DNA from: Desulfobacterales bacterium
GTDB taxonomy: Bacteria; Desulfobacterota; Desulfobacteria; Desulfobacterales; 4572-123
Assembly: GCA_029939715.1 (NCBI GenBank)
Contig: JAOZSJ010000003.1
Location: 1,880-65,879 of the forward strand
DNA length: 64,000 nucleotides
Reading direction: 5' to 3'
This document shows positions 16,001-60,344 of this stretch, in pieces (the first letter of the stretch is position 1; every line of letters starts with the position of its first letter). The translations under genes were made by a program, and so were the position numbers. The notes beneath the pieces are model-generated. The model had not been told where the DNA came from and searched no databases. It saw nothing but the letters and a program-made list of their open reading frames with translations.

Positions 16001-19000
16001 ACGAACGTATCGCCAATGGGAGTACCGATCACAACGATGGTATCGATGCCCGGGCCGCCGTTTATCTCCACCGGCGCATTCTGCAGGTAGTCGTAGCGGT
16101 TGACACCGGCACCGCCGAAAAGGGCCGCCAGGTTTGTCACTTCATCAGGATTGTCCGCGTTCTCCTTGAGCACCAGGAAGGTTTTAAGCAAAAATTTATC
16201 ATTTCCCGAGCCGCCGTGCAGATACAGCTTGGCCCGGTTGTGATTCACCTCCATGCGGTCGTTCTGGCCCTGCCCCATGACAAAAAGAGGTGCACTGTTG
16301 CCGTTTGTCATATTCTGAGTATCCGCCACGGGAACGCCTTCGGGATATTCCAGGGTCCGGTTGCCCGTGTCCGGTATCAGGGGAACAGTACCGATGACAA
16401 TTTCGTCATCACCGCTGCCCATATTGATGATGGTCACAACTGCCGTGTCATTGGACAGGAACAGATCATTACCGGCGCGGCTGTTGACGGAAACACGGTC
16501 AATACGCCGGAAGGTAATGATGTTGCTTTCATCGGCAGATCTGCTTTCAGCGGTAATCCGGCCGGTACGGAAGGCACCTGAGCCTGCGGCATCCAGTGTC
16601 ATGATATCGGATTTGGATGTTCCGTTCACAATCAGTTCATCAAAACCGGAATCACCGGAATCGTCAATGCTGTATCGGGTTCCGCCGTCAGGGCTGATGT
16701 TTATGATAATGTATTCCCGCAGTCCCCCCTGCCCGCTTTCATTGCCCAGGTTGTCGATACTCACGGGGCCGGTCCAGGCACCGGCGGAAACAAAGGCACT
16801 GCCCACATAGATGGTATTATCCATATCGCCGACAACGATAACATTGCAGCTGTTGCCGCCGGTTATAAACGCTTCTTCAAAAATATTATCGATATCTTCG
16901 AAAATTGCACCTGCGGCAAAATGATCACCGGTATCTCTTAATGTAAGATCGGGATCATCCTCCCTGACCCGTTCGGCCAGGTCAAAGGCCGTATCAGGGG
17001 CCTGTTTCAGAAAACTGCCGCCGGTATCACCCACTATGGTGCCGGTAACAAACCCTGTATCAAAAAGTGACATATCCCGGTCCTGAGCCTCAACCAGAAT
17101 ATCATATCCGCCTTCATCGATGAATATATCAAGACCGTCGCCGCCGGTCACCCTGTCATTGCCCTCGCCGCTGTGCAGGATGTCGTTATAGGGTGTACCG
17201 ACCAGTTCATCATTATCTCCGCCGCTGTGCAGTTCCAGTGCCGTAAGATCGGGGTAGTGCAGATTATCCGAACCGTCGGGGTCACCCATTCCCCCGAAAT
17301 TAAGAATATCATCCCCGGCGCCGGTCCAAATTTCCAGAGCGTCCCCTTCAGACCGGACAGAACCGGAAAGTGCAAATTCCATTACCCCCACACGTGAAAT
17401 CAGGACATCCTGCATCCAGGAGGAGCCGCCGGAACCTTCACCGGCATTTCCCAAGCGTCCCATGAAACTGTCATCGCCTGCACTTCCCATGACAATCAGT
17501 TTATCTGCAAAATTGTCGTCATGGAAAACAATATCAGGCACCTCAACGCTGAATCGATCTTCTGTTGTAGAGCTGTCTCCATCCAGATCTTCGATCACCG
17601 TTTTTGTGCCTGCAACCTCCATATGCTTTCCAAAATCAACAGAGAGTTTGGTCATACCTGATCCGACAAGATCCTGAGCCGTGATCACATCGGCACCTTC
17701 GCCGGCGTCAATGGCCAGTTCCCGGACCCCTCTTGCATAAATGTTTCCGCTGTTTAGAAATTCAACCAGGACCTGGTTTAATCCCGGTGTGGAAACCCTG
17801 AGATCATCATTTCCAGAAGTACCCGTGATGACCAGATAATTATCATCGGCATCGGTATCATCCGCATCCACCGTGCTTCCAAGGTCGCCGGCCCCGAGCC
17901 GGATCAGGTCATTTCCGCTGCCGCTTGTAATGGTATTGATGCCGCCGCCGCCGGTTATTTCATCGTCACCGGTGCCGGCATTAATAATATCGTCTCCAGT
18001 GCTGCCCGTGATCTGATCGTTGCCGATACCGCCAAAAAGGCCGGCAAGGCCTGAGCCGGTGTGAATAATGTAATCATCGCCCGCATCACCGTTGATCACA
18101 ACAGCACCGGAACATGAGGTTTCCAGATAATCGGCTCCGCTTCCGCCGTTGATGACGGCACTGGAATCGCCGTTATAGATAAGAATGTCCTCACCATCGC
18201 CGCCGTTTAATTCCACCGGGACAAGAACGCCTTTCCTGATAAAAATACTGTCATTACCTGATCCTGCATCAGCATGGATACCCGTTACATGCTCATAGGT
18301 CCGGCTGCGGCCCATGGCACTTACCTTTATGGTGGCATCCGAAGCGGTCCCCCCCACCTGCTCCACGACATAGGCTTCATCTGGCTCATCTTCAGCCAGG
18401 TTCCGGTACTGCCCACGGGAGCCCATATTCAAATACAGTTCGCCGCCGCTCCAGCTTCTTGCCGCATCCTGAGAAGTGCCGGCATCACCGGCCAGCCAGA
18501 CGGGCCTGGGCAGTTCGAGGTAGCCGATGGTAAAACGGGCCGTCTTTTTGACTTTAACAAACAGGATCTTGATCTTGACGGTGACACTCAGCTGGATCTT
18601 GACCCGGCCGGTTCCCTGGGCACTGAAGGAAAAGCCGAGATCCAGACCGGCCAGGGTAATGCCAAACACCTTGGCCTTGACATGGGCCGATCCGGAAAGT
18701 TCAAAACGATAATATGAATTCCCGGTGGCATCGACAATGCTTTCGGATACAATATGGAAATGAAATCCACCGGAAAGACCGAAGGAACTGGAACCAAGGG
18801 TAAAATCTCCGTTCAGCCGGATATCAAAATTCCCTCTCGAATCAAGGTATCCGCTGCTGTCAAGGGTGGCCAGCCCGAAAAAACTGATGTCCGCATGAAA
18901 ATCAAAACGCCACTGTCCTCCACTCACCAAGACACTGAAGCCTGCATCGAATTTCAGGATCTTGAGGATCTCAACGTGACCTGAAAGCGACAGGTAAAAT

Positions 19001-22000
19001 GAGTTGGCGTCCACTCCCAGGCGACGGGTATTTGTGCTGTTAATGCTCAGCTTGCCGCTGCCCTCGATATCAAATACGGAGGAATTGGCCCCGGCATAAA
19101 CATCCAGGTAAATGACTATACCCGGATCGCTGCCCCCGTAAACACCGGCGCCGCCGCTTGCCCGGAAGCTAAGTCCGCCGATGGAAAATGACAATGAAAA
19201 TTCAAGGGTGATTTCAGATTCCGCAATGACGATATCGAGAGTGCCGCTGCCCCTGGCAAAGCCCAGAAAATCAATACTGCCATCAATGTGGATACGGAGT
19301 CCCGGTGCAATCGAGTTGCTCCCGATGGTCTGCACGCTCCCGGTGGTATTGATTTCAAGCCAGGCATTGGCATAAAATGCCAGGCCGATATCTTCTCCAA
19401 ATGCCAGATCAAGTTCAAGCTGGACATACATGACCAGGCCGGCACTGTTGATCCGCATACCGCCTTGTACCTGTATCGTTCCGATGGGATCCAGAGACAA
19501 AGCCGCATCCGCGGTGATCACGAGTTCAGTCGGGGTGATTCTGAATAAAAAGCTTCCGTCAAAAACAAGGAGCTCCGCCACATTCAGATATCCTGCCATA
19601 CTCAGTTCGATGCCTTCGGTGATATTGATATCAACTGTTTTTTCACCGATGGAGCCGTCATCGAGAATGGCCGGGATGGAAACATTTTGCCAGGCGTTGG
19701 CATAGGTGTTGATCTCCAGCAGGAAATCACCGTCCAGTGTGATGCCCGGGATCACGTTGCTGTCAAGGGCCAGATGAACGTATCCGATAACCCCTGCGCC
19801 CGGATGATCCGGATCATCATTTTCAAGAAAAACCTTGAACAGAAGATCGCCTGAAAATGTGCCTAAAAATGATATATCGGTGCTGACCGTACCCATGACA
19901 CTCAGGTAGGTACTGCCGGTGCCGGTACCGGCGGCAATCTGGATATAACCGGCAAGTGTAATCACATCACCGATGACAAGCTCTGCCTTGATGGTGGCCA
20001 CAAGGTAGATTTCAGGTGCCCGGGCCTCATTTTTCCTGCCGTCCAGGCCTGGAGACGACTTGTATATCTCTATGGTTGTGGGATCGCCCGGTTCGAGCAG
20101 CGGCAGAAAGGACTGGGGAATATCAAAACTCTGATCCTGCATGGTTGTATTGAACATGACCGACACCGAACCCGATGCCCGGAACAGATTACCGATATCC
20201 GGCAGCCCGATGCCCGCCGAGGCCCCGACATGGAACATACCGGCCACGCCGGGGTTATCTCCGGATTGAAAACCGGTTACAACCACGAAAAGTCCCGTGG
20301 CCTCGCCAAATGTGATGGCCGCATCTCCGGCCCCCATGGAAAGTTCGGCAGTGGCAAATATCTCGAACCGGTCAGGGTTGATTTTTAGAAAAAACCCGCC
20401 GTTCATCCGGAACAGGTCCGTATCCAGCCCGGGAGGCCGCAGCCTGACCTGACCTAATATCTCAACTGAAAATGTAAGGGGTGCAAGAACATATGTGCGG
20501 GTAAGGTCTTCGCCGTTTTCTCCAAAACCCGGCAGCGTGATGCTTTCGGTCTTTTCATAGAGCGTTGTGTTAATCTGCAATGTTCCGCTGCCGAACATGA
20601 AAATCCCGATCTGTTCGAGAAAATCAAAATTGGTCTGGACCGTCATGACGCCCCAGAACTGGGGTCCTTCGGTGAACAAATTATTCAGGTCCAGAACAAA
20701 TTTGCCGGCAGAGGCGCCCAGAGTGCCGAGTTTGAACACCTTGAGTTCTCCGCCCAGGGTCAGTTCAAAGACTTTCCTGGCGATATCGATTTCAAGGACG
20801 ACCTGCCCGGTCAATGACATCAGGGGTTCATCGAGAAAATCTGCGGCCCGCAGCTCAATACCGCCTCCGATCTCGATAAAAAATGATGCGGCCTGGGTAA
20901 TAACCACCATGGATTCGGACGAGGCAATGCCGTAATTACCTGCATCGTCCATCCAGCTTTTCTCGGTAAAATGGATGGTGAGTATGCCGGTGTCGAACTG
21001 GTCTTCGAATGAATAACGGAAGGTATTTGTGCCTGCCAGTTCACCCGGTTGGGTAGGGGCCCCGTTTACTCTGACGTTTTCACCGTTCGCACCGGTAAGT
21101 GTAAATTCAGCACCTGGATCCACGATGGATGAAAAATCCAGCGAATTTCCATTAACCGGAGTAAACGTGATTTCAATATATCCGCGGTCGTTAAGGACTT
21201 CACGGTCAACAGTCTCGCCGGCCATGGGGTCAGCCGGGGATGCCCGCGCTTCATCAACCCGGAATGATTCCGTTTCAGACAGGTTCACCATGCCGCTGGT
21301 ATCGGCCCATGCACCGGCACTGTATTCAACCGTATATTCACCGGCATTAAGGGCAACCTCAAAAAAGTATCGGTATCTGTCCGTCAAAAAATCGTCTTCG
21401 ACGTTTTCGCCCGTTGAAATAATGATCCGTTCAGGACTCCCCCTTATAGGGACGATATTGCCGTCTGAATCCTTTACAACCAGTTCATCGCCGTCAATAG
21501 TATTATGATCAATCAGAAAGCCGTCGGTGGCCTTGAAGAGGATCGAGATAAAGCCTGCTGCATTGATTACATCTTTTCCGATAACACTGCCGTTACCAGG
21601 ATCAGCCAGATCGGCCGTACTGCCCGCGGCGGTAAACATCATGGAAGATGAAATGTTGGATATACCGGCATCATCACACCATGTATTGTCAATAAACTGA
21701 ACAGTCACTTCACCGGGCAGAAATTCGCCTGTAAAATAATACCGGAAAGTATTGTTCAGATCTTCGGGGATTTCAGTCAGATCCGCATAGGCGTCATCAA
21801 CATCAACCACCTTGTCTACCTGCCCCTGGATGGAAACGCCGGAGGCACCCAGCCCGCTGACGCCAAATTCAGGACTCGAGTCAAAAATCGAATCCGTATC
21901 AAGGCTCTGTCCCGAACTCGGGAAAAATGTGACATCGAGATATCCGCGGTTGTTCAGCTGATGAATATCGATGCTTGATTTTCTGCCCGGATTGTTCAAA

Positions 22001-25000
22001 ATGGCGGTGGCACCATCTACAACAAAGGCAAGCATCAGGGTATTGTTCATTTCACCGGCGATGGTATTGCCGTTTGCCAGAACAATATCATCGGTCTTGA
22101 ACGTGCCTGCATCAAAGAGCAGCTGTGCTTCACCGCAGGGAAATACAAAGGAACCCGATGCAATGGTATAGCGAAACCGGTTGGTTCCCGTCCGGATAAT
22201 GGCTTCGATCATGGTTTCGCCTGCATTGGGAACCAGTTCGCTAAAGGTCATTATACCATTTTCCGTGATGGATACCACCGGCGCCGGTGCGCCATCAACG
22301 GAAACGCCGGCCCCGTTGACTGTCAGTTCAAACTCGCCGCTGCTGTCCAGAATCGATTGATAATCAAGGGTTGTACCGACAGGTGCCTCAAAAAGAACGT
22401 CGATATATTTATCCCGGCTGTTTATGACATTCACATCGATGCGATCGCCTGACGGGTCTACGATACTCGCAACGGGGATCAGATCGACGGGTTCCGATGC
22501 TTCAGTATCATCCACTACTTCAAACTGTACCTCTTCACCGGACGCATTCTTGAATCCCATCTTGAAATATCCGTATATGGACAGGAGCCTGAACTGTTCG
22601 GGAATATCGGCCAGAAAGTAGAGTTTGACCTCACCTGAGAACACATTGGCCAGATCCGCATACAGCTTACCGCTGATGCTGATGTTGTCGGCGGCGAAAT
22701 TCAGCTTTCCGGCAACCAGGAATTTGCCGTCCGTGCTGAGTTTTATCATAACCTCCCCGTTAAATACCTGTTGGGAGGTGTACAGGGAATAAATTTTTCC
22801 CCCGCCGGTGATGGTCATCGGCGAGGTAAATGCAGCCAGAAACCCCAGCCCGGGGGGCAGGCCCTTGGTGGCAACATACTGATTCAAGACCTGCTGTTTG
22901 ATGGATGACAGCCACATTTCAGCGGTCATGTCCGTGGGCAGTCCGAATGCCGAGTTTCTCAGTTCAAAAGGATGATCGATGGACGGCAGTGACTGAAAGA
23001 ATTCAACACCCGCTGAAAAATCATTGATGGCCAGGCCCACATAGGGAATGGGCAGCGGAACCCCGCCGGGCACTTCCACATTGATAAAAACCCCAAGGGG
23101 GCCCAGTTCACTCAGGCCCAGGCGTATGGTAAGGCCCCCCAGTCCGGGCATGCTGAATCCGCCTTCGATGCCCATAAAGAAAATGCGGGCAGCAACCTCC
23201 GAGGTTGTGTCGAACGCTCCTATAAGTTGATCATACGGATCGATCTTTAAAATACCGCCGACAAGTGCGGCCTTCAGCTCGCCCCCGAACATCTTGCCCT
23301 CAACACTGACCCCGATGGAGGCGATATCGATAATCGGGAATTCACCGTGCAAAAGCTTCATGGGGGCGATCTTGACACCTTCGACAGTACCGGAAAACTG
23401 CAATCCGGGAACACCCTGAATGCTCTCTACGCTGGCCGACAGGGACAGTACAAAATCTTCGGGATGGCTCTGGATGTCATCCCACTGAATACCGATGGCA
23501 TTGATGCGGATGGGCAGCCAGCTTGGCCATTTAAAGCTTTCACCGCCGGCAGCACCCACGCTGATAAACACACCGAATCCGGGTTTGGTAACAAAACTTC
23601 CGTCACCGAGGAAGGCAAAATTCCGGGCTTCTCCGCCAAGGAGCAAAGAACCTATCCTGACCTCGGCGCCCACGGAAATAAAGGCCACCAGTTCCTCATC
23701 CGCTGCCGCCCCGGTGTCCAGCCTGAACCCGACGGCATTGATGGAAACCAGTGTGCCCAGCTTCACGGAGAGGGTATCGACTTCAAAGATAAAAGCGTCC
23801 ACACGACCGTTGGTAAAGGTCAGCTCAAGGCGCAGGGCTTCATCATTGGCAGTGCCGTCGGAATTCATATCATCGGCACTGTTCCGGTCGGTGATCGAGG
23901 CCGATATCGGACGGCCCGGAAAAAATTCAGCACCGCCGGATGCAATATATATGGATCCGCTGAATTCAAATCGCTGACCGAAGGTAACCCCGAAATTGGT
24001 CACGCCGATGCGGATATCATCAAATTCGAGAATACTGCCCAGGCGGATCTTTTTGTCGTCGGATGTGACGGTTGTCCCATCCTGGGGTTCTTCACCGAAG
24101 CCGATCCCTATTTCGGCAACGCCTATCTGAAAACCATTCGGCCGGATCACAAGCCCCGGGATTTCGTCACCGGCGATTGTGGAATCAGGATCAAAAGGCA
24201 TGATTCTGCCGCGAATACCCAGGGCGGGAAACAGAACAGTCACCGATTCGACCCGCAGAAGTTCCTGGTTCAAATAGGCACTGCGGGCATCGGGATAGGC
24301 ATCCAGTGCATCGAGATAGGCCTCATATGCCTTGGGGTAGGCTTCCAGATCTTTGGTATATACTTCATACGCCTCTATATATGCGGCCCTTTCCTCCGGG
24401 GTTGCGGACTGCCCCGGGTCAACAGGCTCCGTGGGAAAAACCGGTTCCTCGGGAATTGACGGCGCCGGGTCGAAATTAATAACAATTCCTTCTGCCTCGA
24501 TCTCCACCACTCCGGGTATTACCACATCAAGTGCGGCAACACGAAACCCGAAGCTGCCCGGCACTTCAACACGTACTCCGCTGAAATCGCCGCTGAGTAT
24601 ACCGAGCAGACCAAACACATCAACGCCTATATCGAACGTGCCCAGAACACCAACCAGATCCGCCGTGATGCCGCTGCTCTCCTGCTGCTCCGTGGACTGT
24701 GTTGTGGTGCCGCCGGCATTGGAATTGCCGCCAAAAGCAAGCGTTGCCCGGTCAACGCCTATGCCGATGGTAAGCATCAGTATGCCGTCTTTAAAACCTA
24801 TGTCCTCGATGCCCACATGAGGTCCCTGCAGCACAAGCGGTCCCAGTTTAATGGATTTTTCCGATTTAGCCTGGCCCGCGGCCGTCGCACTTAGCGTAAA
24901 GCGCTCTGTTGCGGCCGTGTTGGCCGTCCCATCCTCGGTACTGAAGGTGTTGGGCCGGAAACTCACGGTTATTTCACCATCCTTGAAAAGATCGATGGTG

Positions 25001-28000
25001 TTGGCGGTGTTGGCATCCTTCAGATAATATCGGTATGTCGTGCCGGAGATAAGCTGCGGTCTGCCGACAATGTCAGGGATACCGCCGGTGCCCTGAATCA
25101 GTTTCACATCGCCTGTGCCAGTACCTGCCAGGCTGATTTCATCACCGTCAATACTATTTGTATTAAGAGGACTGTCGCTGCGGCTTGTAAAGGTAACGTC
25201 GATATAGCGCTTTGCGTTCAGGGACTCGGCAGACAGCACCGCACCGTTGGCGGGATTGGTAAGGGTGGCACCTGGTGCGGGCGGCAAAAGCTCTCCCGAG
25301 GCATTCCTGTTCACAAGGCTGAAACGCTCTGTCTCCGCAAAATTGGCATTACCATCGGCATCATACCAGGATCCGGCAATAAAACCGAGCTCAACATCAC
25401 CCGACCGGGCAAAGCTGCCTGTAATGGTGTAACGATACGTATTGGGAAATCCGTCTGCAACCTTTTCCGGGCGGCCGTTCACCGTAATGCCGGATATGGG
25501 CTGATTGTTCATGAGCAGCATAAATTCCGGGGAGTTATCCAGGATGCTGTTATCATTCAGGCCGACATTATTCGGGTCACTGAAGGTTACCTCGATATAT
25601 TTTTTATCCGCCGTCAGTCCGTTTATTTCGGCCCGGTCATATGCCATATATCCCATATTGCCGATCTCAAAGGAATCCTTGCCGAAACTTGCAGCGGACA
25701 TGTCCGCTGTTGGAAACAGGACAGGGATATCGGACAGCGGCGAATCAAAACCCACCTGATCAAATATCTGGAAATTATTTATATTGAAACTCTGCATCCT
25801 GAATCCGTCGGTACCGCCGATACTGAATGAAGCGCTGCCTCCGATCTCAAAATACTCCTGGCCCCCGACCGTAATCCTGACATAGGCACCGGCAATGGCA
25901 ACATCGATGGCACCCGTGGGTTTTTTGGAAAAACTGACAGTTCCCCCGATTTTCAGGATATCCAGTATGGATATATCCATACTTCCGGTAAAGGATGTCA
26001 CCATTACAGGTGTTGCAAAATCTATAACAACTGATTTTTCAGTATTTGGAATGTTTATTTCCCGATAGACCACCTGGCCGGAAGTATTGATGTCAATTAC
26101 AGCACTGCCGCTGATATCAAGACCTGCAAGACCTGCAAACGCGATATCTCCACTGGCATGCAGGGCGTATTTTCCGCCATCGAATTTCACCATTCCGATC
26201 TGCGCATTGGTAAGCAGAACACCGATGGCATCGGGGTTTACCTCTCCGTCATCGTTGCGGTACGGCCCCTGGCCCATGAAGACATCGATGCCTTCACCGC
26301 CAAAGGCGTCGCCGCTGAATACGACACTCCCCTCGATGGAGATAAAATTTGCGATATTCAGTTTTGCTTCAGAGGCAAAGAAGATAAACCCTGTTTCCTC
26401 GGCGCTGAAGCGGATCAGGATGGTACTGCCGTTGACCTCGATTTTCTCATCGACACCGCCGCCGGTGGTGTTGATCATAAGGCCCAGGGTTGCCTCGACC
26501 TGCACGGGCCCGCCGCCGCCCAGGGAGCCGACACCCGAAATAATACCGGCAACCCCTGAACCGGTAATCACAAGAGCGCCCTGACCATTTGTAATACTGC
26601 CGCCAAGACTCTCATCACCAAACTCAATACCCGTTACGGCCATCCGGGTAATCTTTTCGCCGGTTTCTGCCCGCGTGGCCTGATCAAAATAAAGGTTGCC
26701 TTCAAGGGTATAACCGCCGATTGTAATTCCGGCGTCAAGAGCGACGATGCGGACAAATACGCCAGCCGGGAGCACCATGTGTTCGGTGGTTGTACCAACG
26801 GTAAAATACTCATCCACTGCTGCCGGCAGCGTGTTTATTTCAAAGGTGATGGTTTCACATGAGAGGGTAAAAACAGATCCGATATTCAGATCATCGGGAT
26901 CAATGGTCAGTTTTCCGGCAATTCCCTGGGCGGTTATCAGCATGACACCGCTTGGGATACCGAGGCTTAAAATCGTGGAAGATCCGCTCTTGAGTTCAAG
27001 CTCAACTTCTGAAACAGCCAGTTTAACAACCCGGCTGCCGCTTTCGGTGCTCGTCTGTTCAAAGCTGAAGTTGCCTGAAAGTGTCTGTCCGAGGATGGAA
27101 AGAGATACATCAACACCCTCCACCCGCAGAAACGGTCCGGCATCCAGACTCAAGGCGACTGTTTCGCCGCCCGTGACAAATATTTCGTCAACAGCGCTGC
27201 CGGTATTGTTTATGGTAAGGGCGAAACTGCCTGCAAATTCAATACCGGGAATGTTTTCCACACGGATATCGGCGCCTATCTCACCGGCCAGTCCCTCGCT
27301 TGTAATCAGCAGTGATCCCCGGCCGTTTTCAACAACTACAAAATCGGTGGTGCCGTTACCAAGCCCCACTGATACATTTGAAGCTCCGATGCGGACAACA
27401 CTGCTCGTCACACCGCCGCTGATGGAACTTACCTTTTCAAAAGAAAAATTACCGCCAAGGGTCTGTCCGAGAATAGTAAGTTCAATGCCGGTTCCTTCAA
27501 CCCTGACAGAGGATTCCGCACCTACATCAACCGTGATCTCTTCGTCCCCGATGGTAAATGTCTGGTTTATGGGTCCGCTGGTTTCAACAATAGATACTGT
27601 AAATGTTCCATCAAATGTAATTCCGGGCACATTTAATCCGACAGCGGCGCTGATCCGGCCGGCCATGCCGCTGTCTGTAATAACCAGGTACCCGGATCCG
27701 TCATGCACGCTGACCACATCGCTTGATCCGTCTCCAAGGCGCAATGCGATATTGTCGGCCGCCACAATGACAATCCGGCTGCCTTCAACGGTTTTTTGTT
27801 CAAAGGCAAAATCACCGGAAATCGACTGCCCGGCAACAGAGAGGATGACATCACTGCCTTCAACGCGGAAATAGGGTCCCTGCGGGAGCAGGAGAGAGAC
27901 GGTGCTGCCGCCAATGACAAAAGTTTCCTCAACCGGGGCCATGGTATTATTTACGGCGATCTCAAATCTCCCTGCAAATCCGACACCGGGAATATTCCTG

Positions 28001-31000
28001 ATTGCCACCGCGGCGCTGAAGCGGCCTGCAAGACCGGCATCGGTGATTATCAGGAGGCCTTCACCTCCGGAAACGCTGACAAATTCCGTGGTGCCGTCGC
28101 CAAGACTTAACCCGGCGCCGGATACAGCCACGCGAATCACACTCGATCCTGCAGCGGTTGTTGCTTTCTCAAAGGCAAAATTGCCGGTCAGTGTCTGGCC
28201 TAGGATTTCAAGATCGAGATTTTCGATCTCCACTTTAAGGTACGGACCTGCCGGCAGTTCCAGGAGGCGTGTATCGTTTCCAACCGTAAACTCACTGGAA
28301 ACCGCCTGGCCCGTATTGTTTACCGATACCGTGACGCTGTCCACAGTTGTCGTCGTAATTCCGGGAATTGTCAGTGTTACACCTGCACTGATTTTTCCCG
28401 CCAGCCCGTCGCCGGTAATAATAAAATAGGCCTCACCGTTTTCAATTGTGACATAATCGGTGGTACCTGAGCCGATATGCAGTTCCACCCGGGTTGCACC
28501 CATCCGTACAATTCGCTGATTGTCGGCAGTTGTGGCCTGCTCGAAACTGAAATTTCCGCTTAACTTCTGGCCGAGTACTTCCAGCGAAGCAGTGGTGCCG
28601 TCCTCGATCCCCGTAATATCCACCTTCAGGTAGGGACCCGCCTGCAGATCAAGGGTTATCTCTTCATCACCGACTTCAAAGGTTTCAAGGACCGCCTGGC
28701 CGGTATTGTTGACAGCTATGCCAAATGCACCCTCCAGGGAAATTCCGGGAATATTGACGGAAACATCAGCACCCAGATAGCCGGCAAGGCCCGCGCTTGT
28801 GATGAGGAAACTGCCCTGTCCGTTGGTGACCGATACAAAATCCGTATGACCGTTGCCAAGGCCGAGGTGGACATTTACAGCAGCAATCCTGACGGCATTT
28901 TCGTCATCGGGCGTACCGATCAGGCCGTCGATGCCTGCGCTTGTAACGCGCTCAAATGCAAAATCACCGCCCAGCGTCTGCCCCAGGATATTCAAATTGA
29001 CGCCGACCCCTTCAACTCTCAGGTAGGGACCGGCCGGGAGATCAAGTGTGATGGTCGTTCCATCAAGAATTATCGTATCGTTTACAGCCGACGGGATATT
29101 ATTAACCGAGAGTTCAAATGATCCGTTAAAAACAACCCCCGGCACGTTAAGACCGACACTTGCCCCGATTTTACCCGCAATGCCCGCACCGGTTATAAGC
29201 AGGGACCCGCTGCCCCGGGAAATGGAAACCGCATCACCGATGGCAAGACTGACATCAGAGGCTCCGAGTCGTATCACGCGCTGTCCGAATGAATTTATGA
29301 CCTGCTCAAAAACAAAATTACCGGAAAGATCATTATCAAGGATTGAAAGTGTGGCATCGGTGACTTCCAGCCTGAGATAGGGTCCTGCCGGAAGGTCCAG
29401 GTTGAATGAATCAAAACTTTCAGATACGGGCGCCGCGGTATTATTCATGGCAAGCCTTATCGTACCTGAGATGGACACGGCATCCAGGTCCAGGGTCATG
29501 GATGCATTCAGCATACCCGAAACACCGGCAGTGGTGATCAAAAGTGCTCCGGAATCAATTTCAATTGAAAGGATATCACCCGCATCGTCGCCAAAGCCAA
29601 GCGCCGCATTTACAATGGCAATTTTTACAATCCGCTCGCCGTCGGGTTTTGTAAGCTGCTCAAAGACAATCTGCTCCGCGGTCAGTGAAATCCCGAGAAT
29701 TGTCAGGCTTGCAGGAGTTGTCCCCTCCGACGCATCACCGATGCTCCCTCCAGAGACGGGATTCAATGCATAAAGTCTGTTTAATGCACCCGTGTTTACA
29801 ACAACCAGTTCAGGGCCGGTGGCGGCAGTGTTCACATCTCCGGCAAGGATTGAAACGGTGGCATCCGCATCTGCTGTAATATCGGAAGCAGACCATGCAC
29901 CGGCGTTATGGGTATAAAGCCTGTTAATTTCATTATAATTACCCGCGGCAATATCAAGGTCGTTGTCTCCGTCGGCATCAAAAAAGGCAATGGCCCGGGT
30001 ATCGCCGTCATCTAACGTTATATCGGCACCGGCATCAAATCCGGCCCAGATGTTGCCGGCGGTTCCCGAATTCAGGTAAAGCCGGTTTACGCCGGTATTG
30101 CCGGCAGCCAGATCAAGGTCTCCGTCATTATCAATATCGCCAAGGGCAATGGCATGGGTTTCACGCGCGTCCGTGGTTAAATCCGTGCCCGGGCCAAATC
30201 CCAGCCAGTCCCCGCTGTCCCCGTCAAAGGCCAGCCATGCACCGGAATTTTCATCATAGCCCGGATTCAGGTAAAACCGGTTTACACCGTTATTACCGCT
30301 TACAATGTCGGAAGCACCGTCACCGTCAATATCGCCGCAGACAATGGAAGTCGTCGAATTTTCGGCATCGGAAACTGCAAGGCCCTCTTCAAACCCGATC
30401 CACTCACCTGTCGCATTGTCAACTCCCCGGTTAAAATAAATCCGGTTTACCCCGCCATGACTGGCTGCGATCAGATCGACATACCCGTCTTTGTTAAAAT
30501 CCTCAAGGGCAAGATCCCTTGTGTCGTCGGCATAGGTACCGATAATGCGGCCCACGGCCATATCCCAGGGGTTATCGTCTCCGTCATTTAAATAGGTAGT
30601 GTTGGCCTGATTAGAATTTCCCGCAACGAGATCAAGGTCCCCGTCATTATCAAGATCGCCAAGGGCAAGGCAGGAAGTTGCATCAGTCTCAAAACCCACG
30701 TTAAGGCCGAAAACCATATCCCATGGATCTCCATCTCCGTCATTGAGATAGAGGCGATTCATGGCAAGGGCGCTTCCGACAACAAGATCAAGGTCGCCGT
30801 CGCCGTCTACATCGCCAAGAACCGAACAGGTATCATCGGCAGTATCGTTATCAATACCGGCCACTTCCACACGCACATAGGGTCCGGAAGGCAGGATGAG
30901 GGTCATGGACCTGCCGCCTGCTTCAAAGGACTCTTCAATCTGCCGGTCGGTACTGTTAATGGCAAGTTCGATGCCGCCGTTAAAGGAGACCCCAGGAACA

Positions 31001-34000
31001 CTGATGTCGACATCACCGCTCAACCTTCCCGCAAGCCCGGCGGCGTTGATCACCAGCAGTCCATGGCCGTTTGAAATGCTGACAAAATCGGTTGTGCCGT
31101 CCCCTAAGCCAACATTTACCTGATTTGCTGCAATTTTAACGATATCCGTATCATCATCATCCCCTGTAATCCCGTTGGGTCCGGCAGACCTGATCTGTTC
31201 AAAGGCAAAATCGCCGCTGATTCTCTGGCCGAGCAACCGCAGATTTACGTCGGTGCCCTCGAATCGCACATAGAATCCGGCAGGCAGGTTAAGATTGATG
31301 CTCTCCGTACCGACTTTGAACTGCTCATTTACCACACTTGTCGTCGTATTGATGGCAAATCCGAAGGTTCCGGAAAATTCAAATCCAAGTGATGGATTAA
31401 AGATGACTGTCCCGCCAAGGCGCCCTGCCAGACCGCCGCCCGTAAAGACAAACATCCCCTCTCCGTCAGTGAGTGTAACAATCGGGGTTTCTCCGGCCAT
31501 CATTTCAAGAGAGACATCAGTTGCGGCCAGAGTTAAAATCATGGGAGGTGTGAAATCCGGATTTTCTGCTGACTGCGGACTGTAATTACCTGTAATTCTT
31601 TCAATAAAAAAGTTTCCGGAAAGTTTCTGTCCGGCGATTTCCAGTAAGGCATAAGGATCGGTTCCGCTGCCGGTTATGGAGAGCCTGAAATACGGTCCGG
31701 CCGGAAGATCCAGGATAATGGTTTCATCGTCTGTGTCTATGGCGGGGTCGTGTCCCAGAATAAACGTTTCGTTTATCTGATTATTTGTATTGTTGATGGC
31801 AATGCCGATGGCCCCGCTGAAAGAGACAGGGCCTACTTCAAGGGATTGAATATCAACAGATACCTCTCCGGCAAGTCCGTCTCCTGAAATCAGCAGTGCA
31901 CCGCTTATGTCTTCAATTGTGACAAGATTAGAGTTCCCGTCGTTTAACGACAGGGATGCGCCGGCCACTGCAATCTTGATATCACCGGCTTCATTTTTAC
32001 CCGGTGTGGCCGGATCATCCGCACCCTTTTCAAATAAAAAGGTTCCGGAAAGAACCTGACCGAGGATATCCAGATCAATGGTGGCCTCAAAGCGTCTTGC
32101 GCCGTAATTTATCGTATGATCGACACTGCCGCCGTTGCCGTCGGGTACGGAAACAATCGTCTCACCGCCGATGTCACTGTATTGTACAACCGCACTGCCG
32201 GAAAAGGATACGCCCGGAATACCGAGAATCATGACCTCCCCTTCGGCATACAGGGCATAGGTGTATGGGCCTGATCCGGACCGGATCAGACCGATGTTGG
32301 CGTTGTCCAGGAGTACGCCCCTTGCATCGGGATTGATACTGCCGTCTTCAAGCTTTACCGGTCCCTGGCCCATGAAAACGGAGATTCCGCTGCCGGAAAA
32401 AGAGCCTCCGGTAATATTGATTTCATCGCCTTCAATGATGACGAAATCACCGATGTTGATGGAGGCTCCGGAAATGATAAAGTTAAAAAAGGTGGAAGGA
32501 TCAGCGATCTCACCGTCACCAAATTCTATTGTAAGGCTCTGACCGTTAAGCTGAATCTCCTCATAAACCGTATGCGATGTAGAATTCAGGCGCAGTTTCA
32601 CGCCGGCACCTGCATCACAGCCGCCGATGCCAAGCGATAGCTGTCCGGAAACAAACCCGGCAATACCGTCGGAATAAATGACAAAAGCGCCCTGGCCCTG
32701 ACTTATTTCAAAATTATCTCCATCAGAATAATCAAAAGAGACATCCGACATGGCAAAGCGGGTTATTTTTACATTATCAGCATTTGTGGTCTGGTCAAAA
32801 AAGAAATTGCCGCTGAAGGAGACACCGCCCACGGACAATGTCAATTCCACCACCGATACCCTGACAAAGGAACCGCCCGCCAGATCGTTTTCATCTATAT
32901 CGCCGTCATCATCCAGGTCAAAGGGAAGCGGTCTTGTGTTGATTTCAACCCTGGTTGTGCCGCCGCTCACGGTTACTCCGGGAATATTCAATATATCAAG
33001 TGTAACATCAAAACTTGCCGCAATCCCGAGGCTGTCAATAACAAAAACAGCGGAACTGCTGGTTACAAGGACAAAAGGATCTGAATCAGAACCTAATTTG
33101 AGTTCAAAATCGGTCACCCGGAGAGTGAGCCTGGTGCCTTGAGGCGTATCTTCTATTTCAATGGCAAGGCTTTCACAAACGATTGACTGCCCGGCAATAT
33201 CAATATCAATATTCGTACCTTCGATGAAAAAACCATCTTCGATCAAAATTTCATCAATAGTTTTTTCACTGCCCGTGGTGTTTATTTTCACCTGGAAACT
33301 GCCGTCAAAATCGACCCCCGGAACATTGACGCCCACGCTTCCGGAAAGATAACCGTACAGGCCCTTTTCAACGACCACACCGTTTTCAAATATCTTTATG
33401 ATTTCAAAAGCACCCTGGCCGTTTGTGACCTGTATTATACTGTTATCCCCTTCACCAACCTTGAGTTCGACATCGGCAAAAGAGACCCTCACTGCCGTGG
33501 AAAGACCGGATGAAGTGCTCTGCTCAAAAACAAAACCGCCGGTGAGCAGAACCCCGCCCACTGAAAGCACAATACTGTCGCCTGCAACCCTCACATATGG
33601 ACCGGCCGGCAGGTCCAGCGTTTCTTCAACGTCGCCTGTAATAAAAGTTTCATTAACAATATGCCCGGTGGTGTTTATTTCCACGTCAAGGATTCCGCTG
33701 ACAACGATACCAGGGATATTTAAAGATGCACTGCAGCCGAGGCTGCCTGCAATTCCAGTGCTGTCTATCACGAAATTGCCATGGCCGCTGCCCACCGTTA
33801 AAATGCCGCTGCCAATGTTCATGGCAACCTGGCCTGCGGAAATTTTGACAACCTTTTCACCGCTGTCCCGGGTGGACTGCTCAAATGCAAAATTTCCACT
33901 CAGAGTTTGACCGAAAACGGAAAGGAGCACACTGTCACCGGCGATCAAAAGGTAAGGCCCGGCATCGAGTTCAAGTGTCAAAGTGCCGGATCCTGCCTGT

Positions 34001-37000
34001 ATGATTTCCGATACCGCGGCATCGGTTGTATTGATCTTGAGTGTGAAATCACCGCTGAAGGATACATCATCTCCTGCCTCTACACTGACACCGGCAGAAA
34101 GAGTTCCGGCCGCACCGGCTCCGGTAAAAACAAAGAAGCCTTGCCCATCAGTCACGGAAACGATGCCGTCGGCAAGGGAGATCTCCACATCCGATGCGGC
34201 AACGCGCACTACTGCCTGCCCGTCTGCACCGGTAACCTGTTCGATGACAAAATTGCCTTCAAGGGTCTGACCCAGGAGTGAAAGGGATGCCCGAGTGGTG
34301 TCATCCACCCCGGTTACTGCAACTTTGAAATAAGGACCTGCCAGAAGAGCTGCAGGTTCGGCATCAGGTAAAAGCTGGATATCCCCGGCAGCAGCGGTGG
34401 TGTTCACAAGCACAGTAAAACGGCCGGATAAGGATATCCCGGATAAATTTACGGCAAGGTCCGTGGAGAGCCCGCCCATGAGCCCGGCACTGGATATTTC
34501 AAAAAACCCGTATCCATTTGAAAGGCTGATGACGGGCGTAGTGCCCCCAAGGGAGATGGCAACGTTTTCCGCACGGGCACGCACAAGTGTATCGGCGTTT
34601 TCCGTGACCTGTTCAAAGACAAAATCACCTGTCAATGTCTGGCCGGATATGGACAGGCTGACATCTGTCCCGGCAAGGCGCACATAGGGTCCGGCGGGAA
34701 GTTCAAGGGCCACGGGTATGGAACCGGCCATGATGGTTTCATGGACATCTACACCGGTTGTGTTGATCTGCAGGTTAAGGGTTCCGGAAACTGCAACATC
34801 CGGGATATGAACGGCAACACTGCCTGAAAGCTCTCCTGCCAGGCCCGCGTCTGTTATAAACAGGGCACCGGTTCCATGAGTAACTGTGACCAGATCATCT
34901 GAGCCGTTTTTCAGGGAGAGCGTCACGTTGGCAGCGGCAATCTTTACAATTTTTACAGGCTCGGGATCCGATGTAACCGTCTGTTCAAATGAAAAATCTC
35001 CGGAAAGACTCTGGCCAAATACCTCAAGCTGCAGGCCGGTCCCCTCAAATCTCAGGTAGGGTCCAGAGGGCAGGATTAATTCAAGAACATTTGAATCTAC
35101 AAGGAACTGCTCATGAACGGCAAAGGTGGAAGTATTTACGGCGAGACTGAGATTACCGGCAAAGTTGATGCCCCCCGGGATTTCCATGGTGACCGTGCCT
35201 TCGAGTCTGCCGGCAAGGCCTGAATCGCTGATGACAAACATACCCTGTGCCTCTGTGAGGCTGAGGATATCATTTGATCCTGCTGTCAGGGAAAAGCTCA
35301 CATTGTCCGCCGCCAGTTTCACGATGGATCCGCCGGCGGGCGATGTCAACTGCTCAAAGGCAAAATCACCGCTGAGCGTCTGCCCCATAAGTTCAAGGCT
35401 GACATCCTGACCTGCAATCCTCATAAACGGCCCGGCACGAATATCCATGACAAGCTGTTCTTCTCCGAATACAAATATCTGGTTCACCGCTGCATGGGTC
35501 GTATTGATTTCAAGGGCAAATGTACCCGCAAAATCCACACCGGGAATATTCTCGGTAATGGCTGCCGATACGCTGCCGGCAATGCCGCTTCCCGTAAAAA
35601 TAAAGGACCCGCTGCCCTGGGTGATACTGACAAGATCGGTTGATCCGTCACCCATGGACATACTGACATCATTTGCAGCCACGCGAAGTGTGCCGGCCAT
35701 ATCGCCACTTGTTATTTTATCAAAGGAAAAGTCACCGGCAAGACTCTGACCGAAAAGGCAAAGTTCGGTATCGGCTACCTGCAGGCTAAGCACCTGGTCG
35801 CCGGAATCAAAGGTAACCGGGACGCCCTCGTCATTTGAACCCGGAATGGAAAGTGTTTCATTTATTGCCGTGCCGGTTGTATTGACCCTGACAGAGGCTG
35901 TTCCGCTGATGGTGATACCGTCAATACCGATAAGCGCAACGCTGCCCGTGGCATATAATGCAAAGGTATCTCCCTGGGCCTGTGTAATTTTTATCAACCC
36001 TATTTTTGCATCGGAAAGAAGAACGCCCGAGGCAAGGGGATTAATATCTCCGTTATCCAGTTTTGCAGGCCCGCTGCCCATGAATATCATCAGTTCATCA
36101 CCGGCAAAAACAAGCCTGTTGCCGTTTTCCACAAAACTGATATTGCCCTCGATTGAAATAAAATCGGCAATATTCAAGGAAAGGTCTGAAATGGAAAAGG
36201 AAAAAATGTCGCCTTCGGATTCTCCAAAACGGATCACAATGGATCGGCCGTTAATATCTATGGTTTCATCAACGGCCCCGCCGGTTTTATTGACACGCAG
36301 GATAATATTTCCACTGGCATCGGCTACGCCTGCATCAAGGGATGCCGAGCCGGAAACGACACCTGCGACACCTGCCGAAGATACGACAAATCCGCCTTCA
36401 CCGTCGGTGAGACTCTGGTCTCCGATGGCCACTGTTACATCCGATACGGCCATCCGGGTAATTTTATCATCATTTTCATCCAGGCGCTGATCAAAATAGA
36501 AATTCCCTGAAATTGCAGGAGAACCGGCCCCGATGGTTATTTGCGCGCCGATGATGGCCACCCTGACAAATGATCCCGCGGCAAGATTCAGTGTGATGGT
36601 TTCACTGCCGATTTGAAATGTCTCGTTGACAGGGGCCGGGGTTGTATTGATTTCAAAGGAGACCGTTCCGCCGCTGATTGATACGCCCGGCACATTAAAT
36701 ACGGGATCTATTGAAAATCCGGCGGCCACTCCGGAACTGCTGATGATCATCGCACCGCTGCCGCCGGTTATGGCGACAAACGGACTGGCAGGATCGCCGA
36801 GAGTTAAATTAAGCGCCGATGCCCCCAGTCTGACAACGCGCTCTCCTCCTGCAGTGGTGATGGATTCAAAGGTAAAATTGCCGCCAAGGCTCTGACCGGC
36901 GATCTCCAGTGATACGCCAACGCCTTCTATCCTGACAAATTTATCCGCCGAAACCGTATCGATCTCAAGGGCAAAGGTACCGGAAAAACTCAAATCCGGG

Positions 37001-40000
37001 ATATTGGCGCTCAGTTCGGCACCTGCAATCTCCCCTGTTACACCGGCACTGCTTATGGAAAGATTGCCGGATGCAATGGCTGCGCTGATAAAATCGGTGG
37101 TCCCGTCACCAAATCCGACATATGCGTTGGAAAGAGCCAGTTCGATGACATCCCCGTTTTTTATAAAAGCGAAATCACCGCTGATGGTCTGACCGAGAAT
37201 ACTGATACTGACATCTTCTCCTGAAATTTTCAGATATGGCCCGACAGGAAGATTTAAATAGATCGAACTGTCACCTGCGGTAAACAGTTCATTCACGGCA
37301 GCAGTTGTCTGGTTGATCTGCAGAGAAAATATTCCGCTTACATCAATTCCAGGGATTGTAATTGTAACAATACCGCTGATCTCACCGGCAAGGCCTTCGG
37401 GTGTCAGCAGGAAGCTGCCCTGCCCGTTTGACAGCGAAACAAGATCGGTTGACCCGTCACTCAGAGCAAAGCTTATATTTTCAGCCGCCACCCGGACAAG
37501 CTGTTCACCGGTATCATTGATAACGCTTTCAAATGCAAAATCGCCGTGGATTGCCTGATCGAAAATCACCAGGTCAAAGTCAACGGCCTCAAGGCGTATG
37601 TAGGGGCCGCCCGAAAGATCGAGTACCACACTTCGGCTGCCGGCAGTCATCGTTTCCAGCACAGGGCTGTCCGTAGTATTGACGGCAAGCTGGATATCGG
37701 ATCCAAAATCAATCCCGCTCACGTTGCTCAACGATATGGAACCGCTCAAACGGCCGGCAATGCCCGATCCGGTTATGATAAAAATTCCATCGCACCGGGC
37801 CCGAACACCAAAGTCATCGCTTTCATCGGCTGTATTTTGATCATCACCGATAAAAATTTCAACATCCATGGCACCAACGCGAATGATTGAACCGCCGCCG
37901 TCCGCAGCGGCCATTTCAAAAATAAAACTGCCTGAAAGTGTCTGGCCCAGAATATCAAGCTCGATATCGGTCCCTGTAATTCTTAAAAAGGGCCCGGCGG
38001 CAAGGGTGACATCAACATCATTGCCGGTTGTAAAAGTGACCTCGGAGCCTGTGGTATTAATACCAATCCCCATGGCACCCTGGAACTCGACACCGGGAAT
38101 ATCAGCTGCGACAAAAGCACTGAGCACTCCGGTCAGGCCGTCGCTTGTATATATAAAGGTGCCCTGGCCATCGGTGACATCCAGAGAACTGCCTCCGGCC
38201 TGGCCCAGGGAGAGCGAGACACTGTCAGCACTTATTTCAATAACCCGGCTGTCATCTTCATTGCCCGGCGTACCATCGGGGTCAAGGGTCAGCACCCCGA
38301 AGCCGAAATTACCGGTGAGGGTCTGGCCCAGCACCGTCAGTTCCATGTTGGTTGCCTGAAAGCTTTTGACCAGATCACCGGTGCTGAAAAAGACAGCAAC
38401 ATCACTGTCGGTTCCCGGAATTTCAAGAAGCTCATCCACAGCCAGGCCCGAGTTGTTGATCCGAACCCTTGCCGTGCCTGAAATCGTGATGCCGTCAACG
38501 CCGATTATGGCCACTGTTCCCGTTGCATAAAGTGCAAACCGGCTTTCCGAATAGTTGATCATCCCCACGGCGGCATCGAAAAGAAGGACACCGGCAGCAG
38601 CCGGGTTTATCTCCCCGCCGTTCAGCCGGGCAGGTCCCTGGCCTATGAAAATCTCAAGGCCAAAGCCTGCAAACCACTGGTAATCGCTTGCCGATGTATA
38701 GCTGAAACTGCCTTCGACGGAAATAAAATCGGCAATTCTAAGGCTCATATCAGCGCCGAAGATCTGGAAAAAAGGCGTTATGCCGCCCGCACTGCCGGAG
38801 GCCGTTTCGTTTTCACCGAAACCGACATGAATTAAACTCCCGTCAATTTCAACGTTTACGTCCACCGCTGACAGGGTTGAATTAATTCGAAGGCCCAGAC
38901 TGCCGCCGACACCGAAGTCATCTCCGGCGGCAATTGAAATTTCTCCTGAAATAATGCCGGCAATACCGCCGGGTGTAACCACAAAAGCACCGTCGGCATT
39001 TTTAACGCCGTTACCGTCAAAGGTGAATGAACCGTCAAGGACCGCCAGTGTAGTGACTGTTTCCAGCGTCCCTGCCCCGTTGTCTGTTGTCTGCTGCTCA
39101 AAGCCGAAGGTACCGGTGAGTGCCAGGGCATCGGCCTCGCCGATATTTACCGCAACATTTTTACCCACTACCTTTATATAAGGACCGGCAGGCAGGTCCA
39201 GCAGGATATCGTCTGTACCTGGAAGCGAAAAGGATTCACTCACCGCAGCCGCACTGGTATTGATTTCAACATCAAAGGATGCATCTGTCGTAAGACCGGT
39301 GATGCTGATATAAAAATCTCCCCCGATCATGCCGGCGATTCCGGTTTCCATGATCACAAGGGCTCCATGGGCGTTGGTGATGCCCACTGAATCCGACGCA
39401 AGGGAGACGCTGACCCCTGTTGCAGCCACACGGACGATCTTTTGATTATCGCCGGCGGTCAGTCCTTCAATCACAAAAACACCCTTTAAGGTCTGGCCGG
39501 CGATGGTCAGGACTGCAAGATCATTTTCATCTGCGCTGATTTCACCGCCTGCAATCCTGAAGTATTGAGCGGCCGTATCGATTTCAGCATTAAATATCCC
39601 GGCAAATTCGATGCCGGGCAGATCGACCTCTATTTGCGCCTGGGTCAACGTTCCGGCAATACCGCTGCTGCTCATGGCAAGACTGCCCGATTCGATGGTG
39701 ACACTTACAAAATCTTTTGTGCCGTCGCCAAGACCTATGTGCGCGTCACTGATGTGAATCTCAACATCACTGCCGTTTTTAACAATGGAAAAATTCCCGC
39801 CGATGGTCTGGCCGAGCATTTCCAGCTTGACATTCTCCCCGCCGAACCGAGATGTGCCCGCGGCCAGATCCAGGGTCTTTGTGATATTGCCCACGGTGAT
39901 CCCACGCAGAACAGCATCGGAGAAAGTGTTCTTCTGCATCCCGAGATCACCGGATAAAGTCACGCCGTCGATACCCACAACAGACGCCAGCCCCCCGGCC

Positions 40001-50781: not shown

Positions 50782-51019
50782 AAGCAAATGACAACTGAGC
50801 AACCTGCCATTTTAGAAAGTGACAAACGGGCAGGCCTGAGTTAGAGTAATATCCGGATAATATAAGCTATTTGGAAACCCGGCTGGCAACATAGTGTTTA
50901 ATAATGCACCATAACGAACGTCTCTGCTGCAACTTTAAATAAAATATTATCTGCTGAATATACATTATTTTATTATTAAATCAACAATAATCAGCAAAAT
51001 TGTTCCGGTAATGATTCAA

Positions 51020-51693: not shown

Positions 51694-51776
51694 GAAAACT
51701 CCCTTGTATTTATTAATGTTATGTACTTTCACCTGTTTTGATATCTTTGACAAATGTGGCGGAACCATCGACATTA

Positions 51777-53207: not shown

Positions 53208-53332
53208 AATTACCTCTTTAAAAATGCTAATATTGTAGTGTGACTAAATTTAAGGAATGTTTCCTGCCTGGTTTGAAATTCATAACCTGATGTTTTTTGA
53301 TAAAAAGCACTTACATATCCTTCTTTATTCTT

Positions 53333-54469: not shown

Positions 54470-54504
54470 ATTTTTCTCCTTTTCCTTTAAAGATAAGCTT
54501 TTGG

Positions 54505-54580
54505 CTTTTAGCAGTTAGCCATTAGCTAAATGAATCCTTTGTCATTTCGAGCTTGAAAGCCAATAGCTAACAGCTAAAAG
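54505..54580 (-). repeat. Imperfect 23-bp inverted repeat (CTTTTAGCAGTTAGCCATTAGCT ... AGCCAATAGCTAACAGCTAAAAG) forming a long stem-loop 5 nt after the stop of the MttB gene at 54585
   Basis: The arms lie at 54505-54527 and 54558-54580 and pair at 20 of 23 positions by my alignment. No U tract follows on the minus-strand RNA. Confidence 0.55.
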
Positions 54581-54584
54581 TTAA

Positions 54585-56018: not shown

Positions 56019-56054
56019 AAATATTCCCCAATAATAGATACAATTTTTTCTTGA

Positions 56055-57422: not shown

Positions 57423-57446
57423 ATAAAAATTCCCCCGGTATTCCAG

Positions 57447-58574: not shown

Positions 58575-58591
58575 ATTAAATTTTTCCTGTC

Positions 58592-60288: not shown

Positions 60289-60344
60289 TTAATTTTCTCC
60301 TGGAAATAAAGCCCTTAAAAACCTGAAGCCTGCAGTAAAATTGA

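Follow-up and report, generated by a model that had tools for sequence, protein, structure and literature searches.

A predicted seven-bladed VCBS/FG-GAP propeller in the module array of a giant Desulfobacterales protein

The window analysed here, a stretch of 64,000 nucleotides from contig JAOZSJ010000003.1 of a Desulfobacterales bacterium (assembly GCA_029939715.1, positions 1,880 to 65,879), a marine sulfate reducer, carries a giant gene on its minus strand. Profile matches and a structural model show that the segment 29,683-30,846 of this gene encodes a beta-propeller of the prokaryotic VCBS/FG-GAP superfamily, predicted to be closed and to have seven blades. We regard the propeller as probably a Ca2+-stabilised accessory interaction domain, one functional part of the molecule among several and not its sole head. 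In the large proteins secreted by bacteria, few recognisable domains are as common as VCBS/FG-GAP propellers. The propeller is in itself ordinary, and its context is more interesting: the host protein belongs to a widespread uncharacterised family of giants whose architecture is conserved and whose module fold was not found in PDB. In a protein of at least 17,000 amino acids (aa) that otherwise lacks annotation, the propeller is the single landmark that can be recognised, and it exposed a conserved collinear family across phyla. Throughout, residue i of the giant protein starts at window position 50,811-3(i-1), and the features of the gene lie on the minus strand.

Repeats and predicted fold of the propeller

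The inter-module segment (388 aa, aa 6656-7043; 29683..30846) comprises the seven-bladed FG-GAP/VCBS propeller and a C-side linker of ~24 aa for which the model confidence is low. A sequence-only reading of the window had placed seven Ca-loop repeats, with the strand unstated, at 29,790-30,830, and the repeats are real: all the quoted peptides are present in the translation of 29,400-31,200 on the minus strand, namely GDVDGDGDLDLV, GDLDNDGDLDLVAG, EDFNKDGYVDLIAA, GDIDGDGASDIVSG, GDIDNDGDLDLAAG and FDADGDNDLDIAAG, together with the degenerate seventh, GDVNTAATGPELVV, each of the seven being followed by N(R/T)(L/I/F)Y. The propeller does lie in that place, and only its limits had to be moved, the proposed span being ~100 nt short at the 3' end. 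The next module is met at about 29,682 and not at ~29,780, and the motif upstream of the propeller, given as PAGPYVRVEV, reads PSGPYVRVEV.

Six of the seven blades have a complete Ca loop of the DxDxDGxxD type. The loop is DVDGDGDLD in blade 1 (aa 6657-6708; 30688..30843), DLDNDGDLD in blade 2 (aa 6709-6760; 30532..30687), DFNKDGYVD in blade 3 (aa 6761-6815; 30367..30531), DIDGDGASD in blade 4 (aa 6816-6880; 30172..30366), DIDNDGDLD in blade 5 (aa 6881-6933; 30013..30171) and DADGDNDLD, with G6 replaced by N, in blade 6 (aa 6934-6980; 29872..30012). Blade 4 contains ~13 extra residues ahead of blade 5, at which the predicted local distance difference test score (pLDDT) is 58-77. Blade 7 (aa 6981-7033; 29713..29871) is degenerate (DVNTAATGPE), has no complete Ca site and was modelled with just three confident strands. 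Five of the six matches to the pattern D-x-[DN]-x-[DN]-G-x-x-D in the whole 16,937-aa protein fall within aa 6667-6892, and the six loops are predicted to be Ca2+ sites.

Two Pfam profiles recognised the segment well above their curated cutoffs: FG-GAP_3 (PF13517) with E 2.5e-30 and 105.3 bits against 26.9, and FG-GAP (PF01839) with E 4.2e-18 and 65.2 bits against 22.1. Each model matched in six stretches, in agreement with the about six significant FG-GAP matches that the sequence-only reading had proposed as a check, and Pfam gave no FG-GAP match elsewhere in the 16,937 aa. At E<=1e-5 the propeller has 4,528 FG-GAP/VCBS homologues. The VCBS/FG-GAP supercluster has been delimited by Pereira & Lupas 2021 (PMC8023676), and the propeller described here falls in it.

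For structure prediction by AlphaFold2 (AF2) aa 6650-7050 were aligned with 60 homologues. The resulting model is one compact domain (pLDDT 86.8; predicted TM-score, pTM, 0.87) made of seven successive strand sets, and pLDDT drops below 50 at model residues 372-401, the C-side tail of ~24 residues being disordered. When the model was compared with PDB by Foldseek, the best match was CRTAC1 (9etn) with E 4.6e-14 and a TM-score to the query of just 0.64, and other matches included ITFG2 in KICSTOR, BBSome propellers (BBS9) and LGI1-EPTP. The alignments to the ITFG2, BBS9 and LGI1-EPTP propellers, which we take to be seven-bladed, extend over 370-390 columns with a target TM-score of up to 0.74. 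The model is confident and compact and aligns end to end with seven-bladed propellers, in agreement with the closed propeller that the sequence-only reading had asked of a structure prediction.

The designation integrin-alpha-type, used by the sequence-only reading, proved less clear. The VCBS/FG-GAP_3 score is the better one, and the alignment profile run against PDB sequences matched CRTAC1 at 4.5e-26, integrin alpha-4 and alpha-V at about 5e-9 in their Ca blades only, the propeller of the Tc-toxin YenB at 1e-8 and ITFG2 at 2e-6. The CRTAC1/ASPIC-type propeller is therefore the best solved relative by sequence profile and by Foldseek alike; unlike the giant protein, CRTAC1 is small, is secreted by eukaryotes and combines its propeller with other domains. 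Integrins are absent from the 50 best Foldseek matches. The propeller of integrin alpha is nevertheless homologous to the blades described here (profile matches to the Ca-binding blades 4-7 of alpha-4, alpha-V and alpha-IIb), it also has seven blades, and closure by an N-terminal strand is expected for it too. The differences lie in the number of Ca sites, three or four in integrins against six in the giant protein, which is the bacterial pattern (PMC3192720), and in the location of the propeller, N-terminal in integrins and mid-chain here. Pfam found no integrin thigh or calf domains in the 16,937 aa, the flanks being formed by modules of ~116 aa, and an integrin-like partner was not identified.

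In bacterial integrin-type propellers a Ca site is found in every blade and an N-terminal strand locks blade 7 (Chouhan et al. 2011, PMC3192720). The candidate for such a strand is a short one at model residues 2-3, and the residues VAGIDN preceding blade 1 resemble the D strands of the blades. According to the model, the strand before blade 1 may supply an integrin-style closure of blade 7; the VAGIDN residues are at the same time the tail of the preceding module, and homologues show a clearer I-x-F-G-P-Q strand there.

Module array and collinear giant homologues

The array was mapped with a module profile built iteratively from the giant protein's own repeats. It consists of ~59 tandem modules of ~116 aa (aa 653 to 8280), 49 of them upstream and 10 downstream of the propeller. 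Part 1 (aa 653-6655; 30847..48855) contains 49 all-beta modules, joined mostly by 6-aa linkers, and part 2 (aa 7044-8280; 25972..29682) contains 10, the tenth being a partial match. The 388-aa segment is the sole gap in the array longer than 26 aa. The module upstream of it ends at aa 6655 (profile positions 1-115) and the downstream one starts at aa 7044 (profile positions 2-116); since both match the full profile, the propeller lies between two modules, as had been proposed, and not within one. It was also said to sit in the middle of the array, which holds insofar as it is inside it; the 49 modules upstream contrast with 10 downstream, after which about 8,650 aa of heterogeneous non-module sequence follow, so that half of the protein is beyond the array. 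In gammaproteobacterial RTX adhesins the ligand-binding domains bud from 'split' extender domains (PMC12077191), an arrangement different from the one seen here, where the propeller stands between two complete modules.

The ~116-aa module has no Pfam match. One module (aa 6531-6655; 30,847-31,221) was modelled by AF2 with pLDDT 94.8 and eight long strands, and Foldseek found no match to this fold in PDB, Ig-like domains included (best E 0.6). The module appears to be a domain family or fold that has not been described so far. When a profile of 45 modules was run against 1.84 billion cluster representatives, 1,748 module-bearing representatives were obtained at E<=1e-3, the top matches reaching 7,762 aa and 48 modules.

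Among the 150 best module-bearing representatives any blade match was found in 32, and at least five blades in 18. In the following, WIN denotes the giant protein of the window, L005 a protein from a Planctomycetaceae metagenome-assembled genome (MAG), other L numbers come from the genome collection and P numbers from the module search. An architecture of n modules, seven blades, five modules, seven blades, 10 modules and a tail is displayed by P0121, P0123, P0146, P0152, P0164, P0183, P0229 and P0254, and one propeller followed by ~10 modules by P0131, P0158, P0174 and P0175; L005 is built of 12 modules, seven blades, 10 modules and 1,834 aa. In proteins whose array can be seen to its end, 9-12 modules (mode 10) come after the last propeller, and in WIN, L005, P0121, P0123, P0152, P0146, P0175 and P0131 these lead to a collinear conserved region. 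Giant homologues from several phyla thus keep the position of the propeller, and many of them have another one exactly five modules before it, so the mid-shaft placement that the sequence-only reading had called unusual is the norm of the family.

The correspondence extends to single modules. For the WIN modules at offsets -2, -1, +1, +2, +6, +7, +8 and +10 from the propeller the best match in L005 is the module at the same offset, and for offsets +8, +9, +10 and -2 same-offset best matches were also seen in several other homologues; judged by these matches, the modules are positionally orthologous between WIN and its homologues. The junction between the last module and blade 1 is alike in WIN (PYVRVEVAGIDN followed by DTADDT) and L005 (PYLRVEVRSVDN followed by SATQDT). 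In the homologues with two propellers the upstream one lies between modules -6 and -5, five modules before the downstream one. In WIN these modules (aa 5878-5992 and 5999-6118) are joined by an ordinary 6-aa linker at the site where an upstream propeller would sit (aa 5992-5999; about 32,817-32,836), hence WIN has the downstream propeller only. An attempt to assign the WIN propeller to the upstream or downstream type by sequence was abandoned, because BLAST scores do not discriminate between them (131 bits for P0123_A and 140 bits for P0123_B); position and flanking modules alone assign it to the downstream type. A module-propeller-module query against GTDB species representatives gave a best segment identity of 51%.

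These comparisons show a cassette of propeller, ~10 modules and ~1,850-aa region which is inherited and is common to giants from Planctomycetota, Actinomycetota-labelled MAGs and a deltaproteobacterial worm symbiont. On this evidence the propeller is an ancient, positionally fixed yet dispensable cassette that is not peculiar to this gene. WIN resembles the VCBS/FG-GAP_3 core group and the bacterial integrin-type propellers in having seven repeats of ~50-60 aa with a DxDxDG loop in almost every blade, and its family shares with them regular loop lengths, secreted multi-domain hosts and, sometimes, two propellers per protein. Unlike them it is embedded in undescribed ~116-aa modules instead of Ig-like domains, is fixed at 10 modules from the ~1,850-aa region and has lost the Ca site of its seventh blade.

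The junction of blades 4 and 5 is a hot spot of insertion. The ~13 extra residues of WIN (about 30,172-30,240) correspond to 104 aa in L005, and in homologues from Verrucomicrobiota 335-865 aa made of tandem ~100-aa units are inserted there. The inserts have been located at 9,745-10,812 in L006, 12,662-13,666 in L011, 7,760-10,354 in L014, 9,866-12,208 in L017 and 5,253-5,564 in L005, and they resemble the alpha-I insertion of integrins or the beta-prism insertion of Bap1.

Conservation and possible role of the propeller

Between WIN and its closest collinear homologue, L005, identity amounts to 37% in the propeller, 39-56% in position-matched modules and 54.5% (over 1,886 columns) in the region behind the array, which makes the propeller the least conserved segment in this alignment. 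The post-array region (aa 8281-10135, 1,855 aa; 20407..25971) is non-repetitive and the best conserved part of the protein, being collinear with the homologues from about aa 8,280 of WIN and 44% and 39% identical to P0123 and P0121, respectively. Its 38 homologues at E<=1e-10 come from many phyla, and nearly all are 'hypothetical, partial' proteins with no Pfam domain. As a landmark the propeller also points to this region, which is more likely than the propeller itself to be the functional core of the protein.

According to the sequence-only reading the propeller may be an integrin-alpha-like ligand-binding head, placed unusually mid-shaft, and the site through which the entire molecule binds. 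Such a head would account for the FG-GAP repeats, the closed propeller of the model and the sequence homology to the Ca blades of integrin alpha, and the propeller is indeed the sole Pfam-recognised domain within the first 8,280 aa of the giant protein; we nonetheless consider the proposal rather improbable, given the far better conservation of the post-array region, the placement typical of the family, the relation to VCBS/CRTAC1 that is closer than that to integrins, the about 8,650 aa still to follow and the related giants with no propeller in the sampled part of the array. Furthermore, an alignment of 12 positional orthologues revealed no blade-specific conserved surface residues, beyond scaffold motifs, as the signature of a ligand site. 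Taken together, the comparisons argue against a single functional head and are compatible with lineage-specific binding and with a structural role alike. The top-face loops (2-3 and 4-1), which in integrins and in lectins of the PVL/tachylectin type make up the ligand face, vary across the 12 orthologues. The variation suggests that any specificity may differ from lineage to lineage.

As the accessory interaction domain that we favour, the propeller would act in the following way. The giant protein would leave the cell, probably through a type I system like other RTX proteins, and would extend as a fibre, the propeller folding on meeting extracellular Ca2+. The chain would enter and leave the propeller at neighbouring blades, so that the propeller would bulge sideways and leave the fibre axis unbroken; a sideways projection is expected because in integrin-type propellers the two ends of the chain are held together in blade 7 (PMC3192720). 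Close to the distal end of the module array, the propeller would then form a knob for accessory interactions. The adhesin DvhA of Desulfovibrio, a sulfate reducer, sets a precedent for such a globular domain within an array, since its repeats 14 and 15 are separated by a vWFA domain (PMC13090378).

The most likely class of ligand, a guess made by analogy, would be a glycan or matrix polymer, because Bap1 and RbmC bind their cell's own exopolysaccharide and relatives of the VCBS propellers are lectins. Bap1 and RbmC, the sole bacterial adhesin propellers with tested function, bind that exopolysaccharide, VPS, directly (PMC10102183); proteins of the VCBS core group are secreted, have several domains and are associated with interactions, and the lectins in question are fungal and animal relatives (PMC8023676). 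The propellers of Bap1 and RbmC from Vibrio cholerae are, like that of WIN, of the Ca type and part of a secreted bacterial protein, and, as in the homologues from Verrucomicrobiota, a further domain can be inserted into them. Bap1 is small, has eight blades, leaves the cell by the type II route and is not known to form part of a fibre. In the PDB profile search no significant match of Bap1 or RbmC to the WIN propeller was obtained at E<=1e-3. The propeller is predicted to be a soluble Ca-dependent domain of ~390 aa that can be expressed and screened, and it thus gives an experimental handle on the giant protein.

Several observations weigh against an accessory interaction domain. The positions conserved in the 12 positional orthologues are scaffold residues only (the Ca loop, LYLNDG and T..A.A.GD), and the propeller is 33-42% identical to the propellers of its own family and 39-47% identical to unrelated FG-GAP proteins. 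None of the comparisons points to a ligand or a binding pocket. No propeller was found in the last ~40 modules sampled of L007 (Desulfobacteraceae), L012 (Desulforapulum), L008 and L013, and neither genes of a type I secretion system nor a C-terminal secretion signal are visible in the window. The strand before blade 1 is ambiguous as the closing strand, and the sideways geometry is inferred from what is known of integrin-type propellers.

Some of the same evidence bears on a ligand-free structural or secretory role, in which the propeller would serve as a Ca2+-triggered ratchet or stopper in C-to-N export, as a rigid spacer or hinge, or as a registration point for lateral association of fibres. 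Conservation confined to Ca-binding and scaffold residues, the presence of six Ca sites in a very acidic protein with internal RTX blocks, and module spacings (5 and 10) that are strikingly constant across phyla would all suit such a role. It is unlikely, if worth serious attention, since the VCBS propellers studied to date bind or catalyse (PMC8023676, PMC10102183), the 335-865-aa inserts in Verrucomicrobiota suggest a display platform and not an inert node, and arrays that apparently have no propeller exist and are presumably exported. A broader proposal, speculative and to our mind a long shot, takes the cassette of propeller (with or without five modules and a second propeller), 10 modules and ~1,850-aa region as an undescribed class of surface fibre found in Desulfobacterota, Planctomycetota, Verrucomicrobiota and Actinomycetota-labelled MAGs and built on a module fold absent from PDB, in which Ca2+ propellers at ruler-like spacings would be registration or cross-linking nodes, fibre-to-fibre or fibre-to-matrix, and not classical adhesin heads.

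It is very unlikely that the propeller is a catalytic one tethered on the fibre, for example a polysaccharide lyase or dehydratase comparable to RGL11/AUDH at the VCBS periphery. These enzymes do belong to the same supercluster (PMC8023676); the propeller, for its part, gave no profile match to any enzyme family and has no conserved non-scaffold residues from which an active site could be formed.

The remainder of the giant gene and its surroundings

A six-frame scan of the window revealed a single long reading frame, on the minus strand from 50,811 to 1, with 16,937 stop-free codons. Its first ATG is at 50,781 (start MPLNRSKTENIFELENLEPRILLSAD), and the open reading frame (1..50781) encodes at least 16,927 aa from this ATG, is open at the left end of the window and has its C-terminus beyond it. 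In two other public assemblies the gene yields one product, of 16,864 aa and 17,004 aa, each ending at a contig end; for the JGI contig (L002) a product of just 3,449 aa is listed. In each of the three public assemblies (L001, L002 and L003) the contig stops before the gene does, and the length of the gene product is at least 17,004 aa. This truncation, and the ease with which repeats can be mis-assembled, would be the grounds for dismissing the propeller as a chance run of motifs, a non-coding region or an assembly chimera. The chance of that is practically negligible in view of the 16,937 stop-free codons, Pfam E-values down to 2.5e-30, a frame that stays open for >16,800 codons in the two other assemblies, and the same junction and architecture in an unrelated MAG.

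With a net charge of about -1,750 the host protein is strongly acidic, and it contains few Cys residues. Its N-terminus carries the LEPR-XLL motif ELENLEPRILLSAD (50686..50748), recognised by NCBIfam NF012209 with E 4.2e-07 and 29.3 bits against a cutoff of 17, and a LEPR-XLL start is also present in 15 of the 150 best module-bearing proteins. No description of a role of LEPR-XLL in export or anchoring was found in the literature searched. A hydrophobic signal peptide is not apparent at the N-terminus when the sequence is read by eye, and a cleavage site of the LapG/DvhG type, [T/A/P]AA[G/V], is absent from the first 400 aa.

Apart from FG-GAP and RTX, the Pfam scan of the 16,937 aa recognised no domain, and the C-terminal 8,650 aa gave matches to RTX blocks only when searched against Pfam, NCBIfam and PDB sequences. 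One RTX nonapeptide block, matched by Pfam, is internal (aa 11,196-11,229; 17125..17226), and GGxGxD motifs are scattered over aa 10,870-13,174 (about 11,290-18,204). The C-proximal block (aa about 16,599-16,930; 22..1017), which reaches the edge of the window, was matched by PF00353 in six stretches with E 1.3e-12 and is supported by NCBIfam RTX-type matches and by the RTX block of CyaA (9.9e-10). RTX blocks in mid-protein, besides the C-proximal ones, are unusual compared with classical RTX adhesins, in which the beta-roll is C-terminal. The RTX blocks, the acidity and the scarcity of Cys fit an exported Ca-dependent protein of the RTX type.

With the giant RTX adhesins of the LapA/MpIBP/AhLap type WIN shares the very large size, acidity, Ca dependence, RTX repeats near the C-terminus and a long array of tandem extenders in which functional domains lie towards the distal end. 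It differs from them in that its extender matches no solved structure, Ig-like ones included, and in that its N-terminus has LEPR-XLL and no [T/A/P]AA[G/V]. The literature searched on LEPR-XLL, giant FG-GAP genes, giant genes of Omnitrophota, giant proteins of Chlorochromatium and 'huge proteins' contained nothing describing this family or its architecture.

Numerous plus-strand open reading frames of 100-375 aa across 26,087-36,490 (for example 26,747-27,874) were dismissed as shadow frames of the giant gene. Directly upstream of the gene, at 51,777-61,606 on the minus strand, lie two MttB-family methyltransferases, a saccharopine dehydrogenase, a DAO oxidoreductase and a complete ABC importer, and the upstream neighbours also include a BTAD/TPR regulator; the cluster looks like one for the utilisation of methylated amines and is apparently unrelated to the giant gene. 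Proteins encoded next to the giant gene are exact matches to OQY08210.1 and OQY08211.1 of Desulfobacteraceae bacterium 4572_123, which identifies the source organism. The G+C content is 50-53% in the giant gene (1-48,000) and 38-48% in the flanking metabolic genes (48,001-64,000). This contrast, taken together with the 54.5% identity to the Planctomycetaceae protein, hints at horizontal transfer, with a bias of amino-acid composition as the alternative cause.

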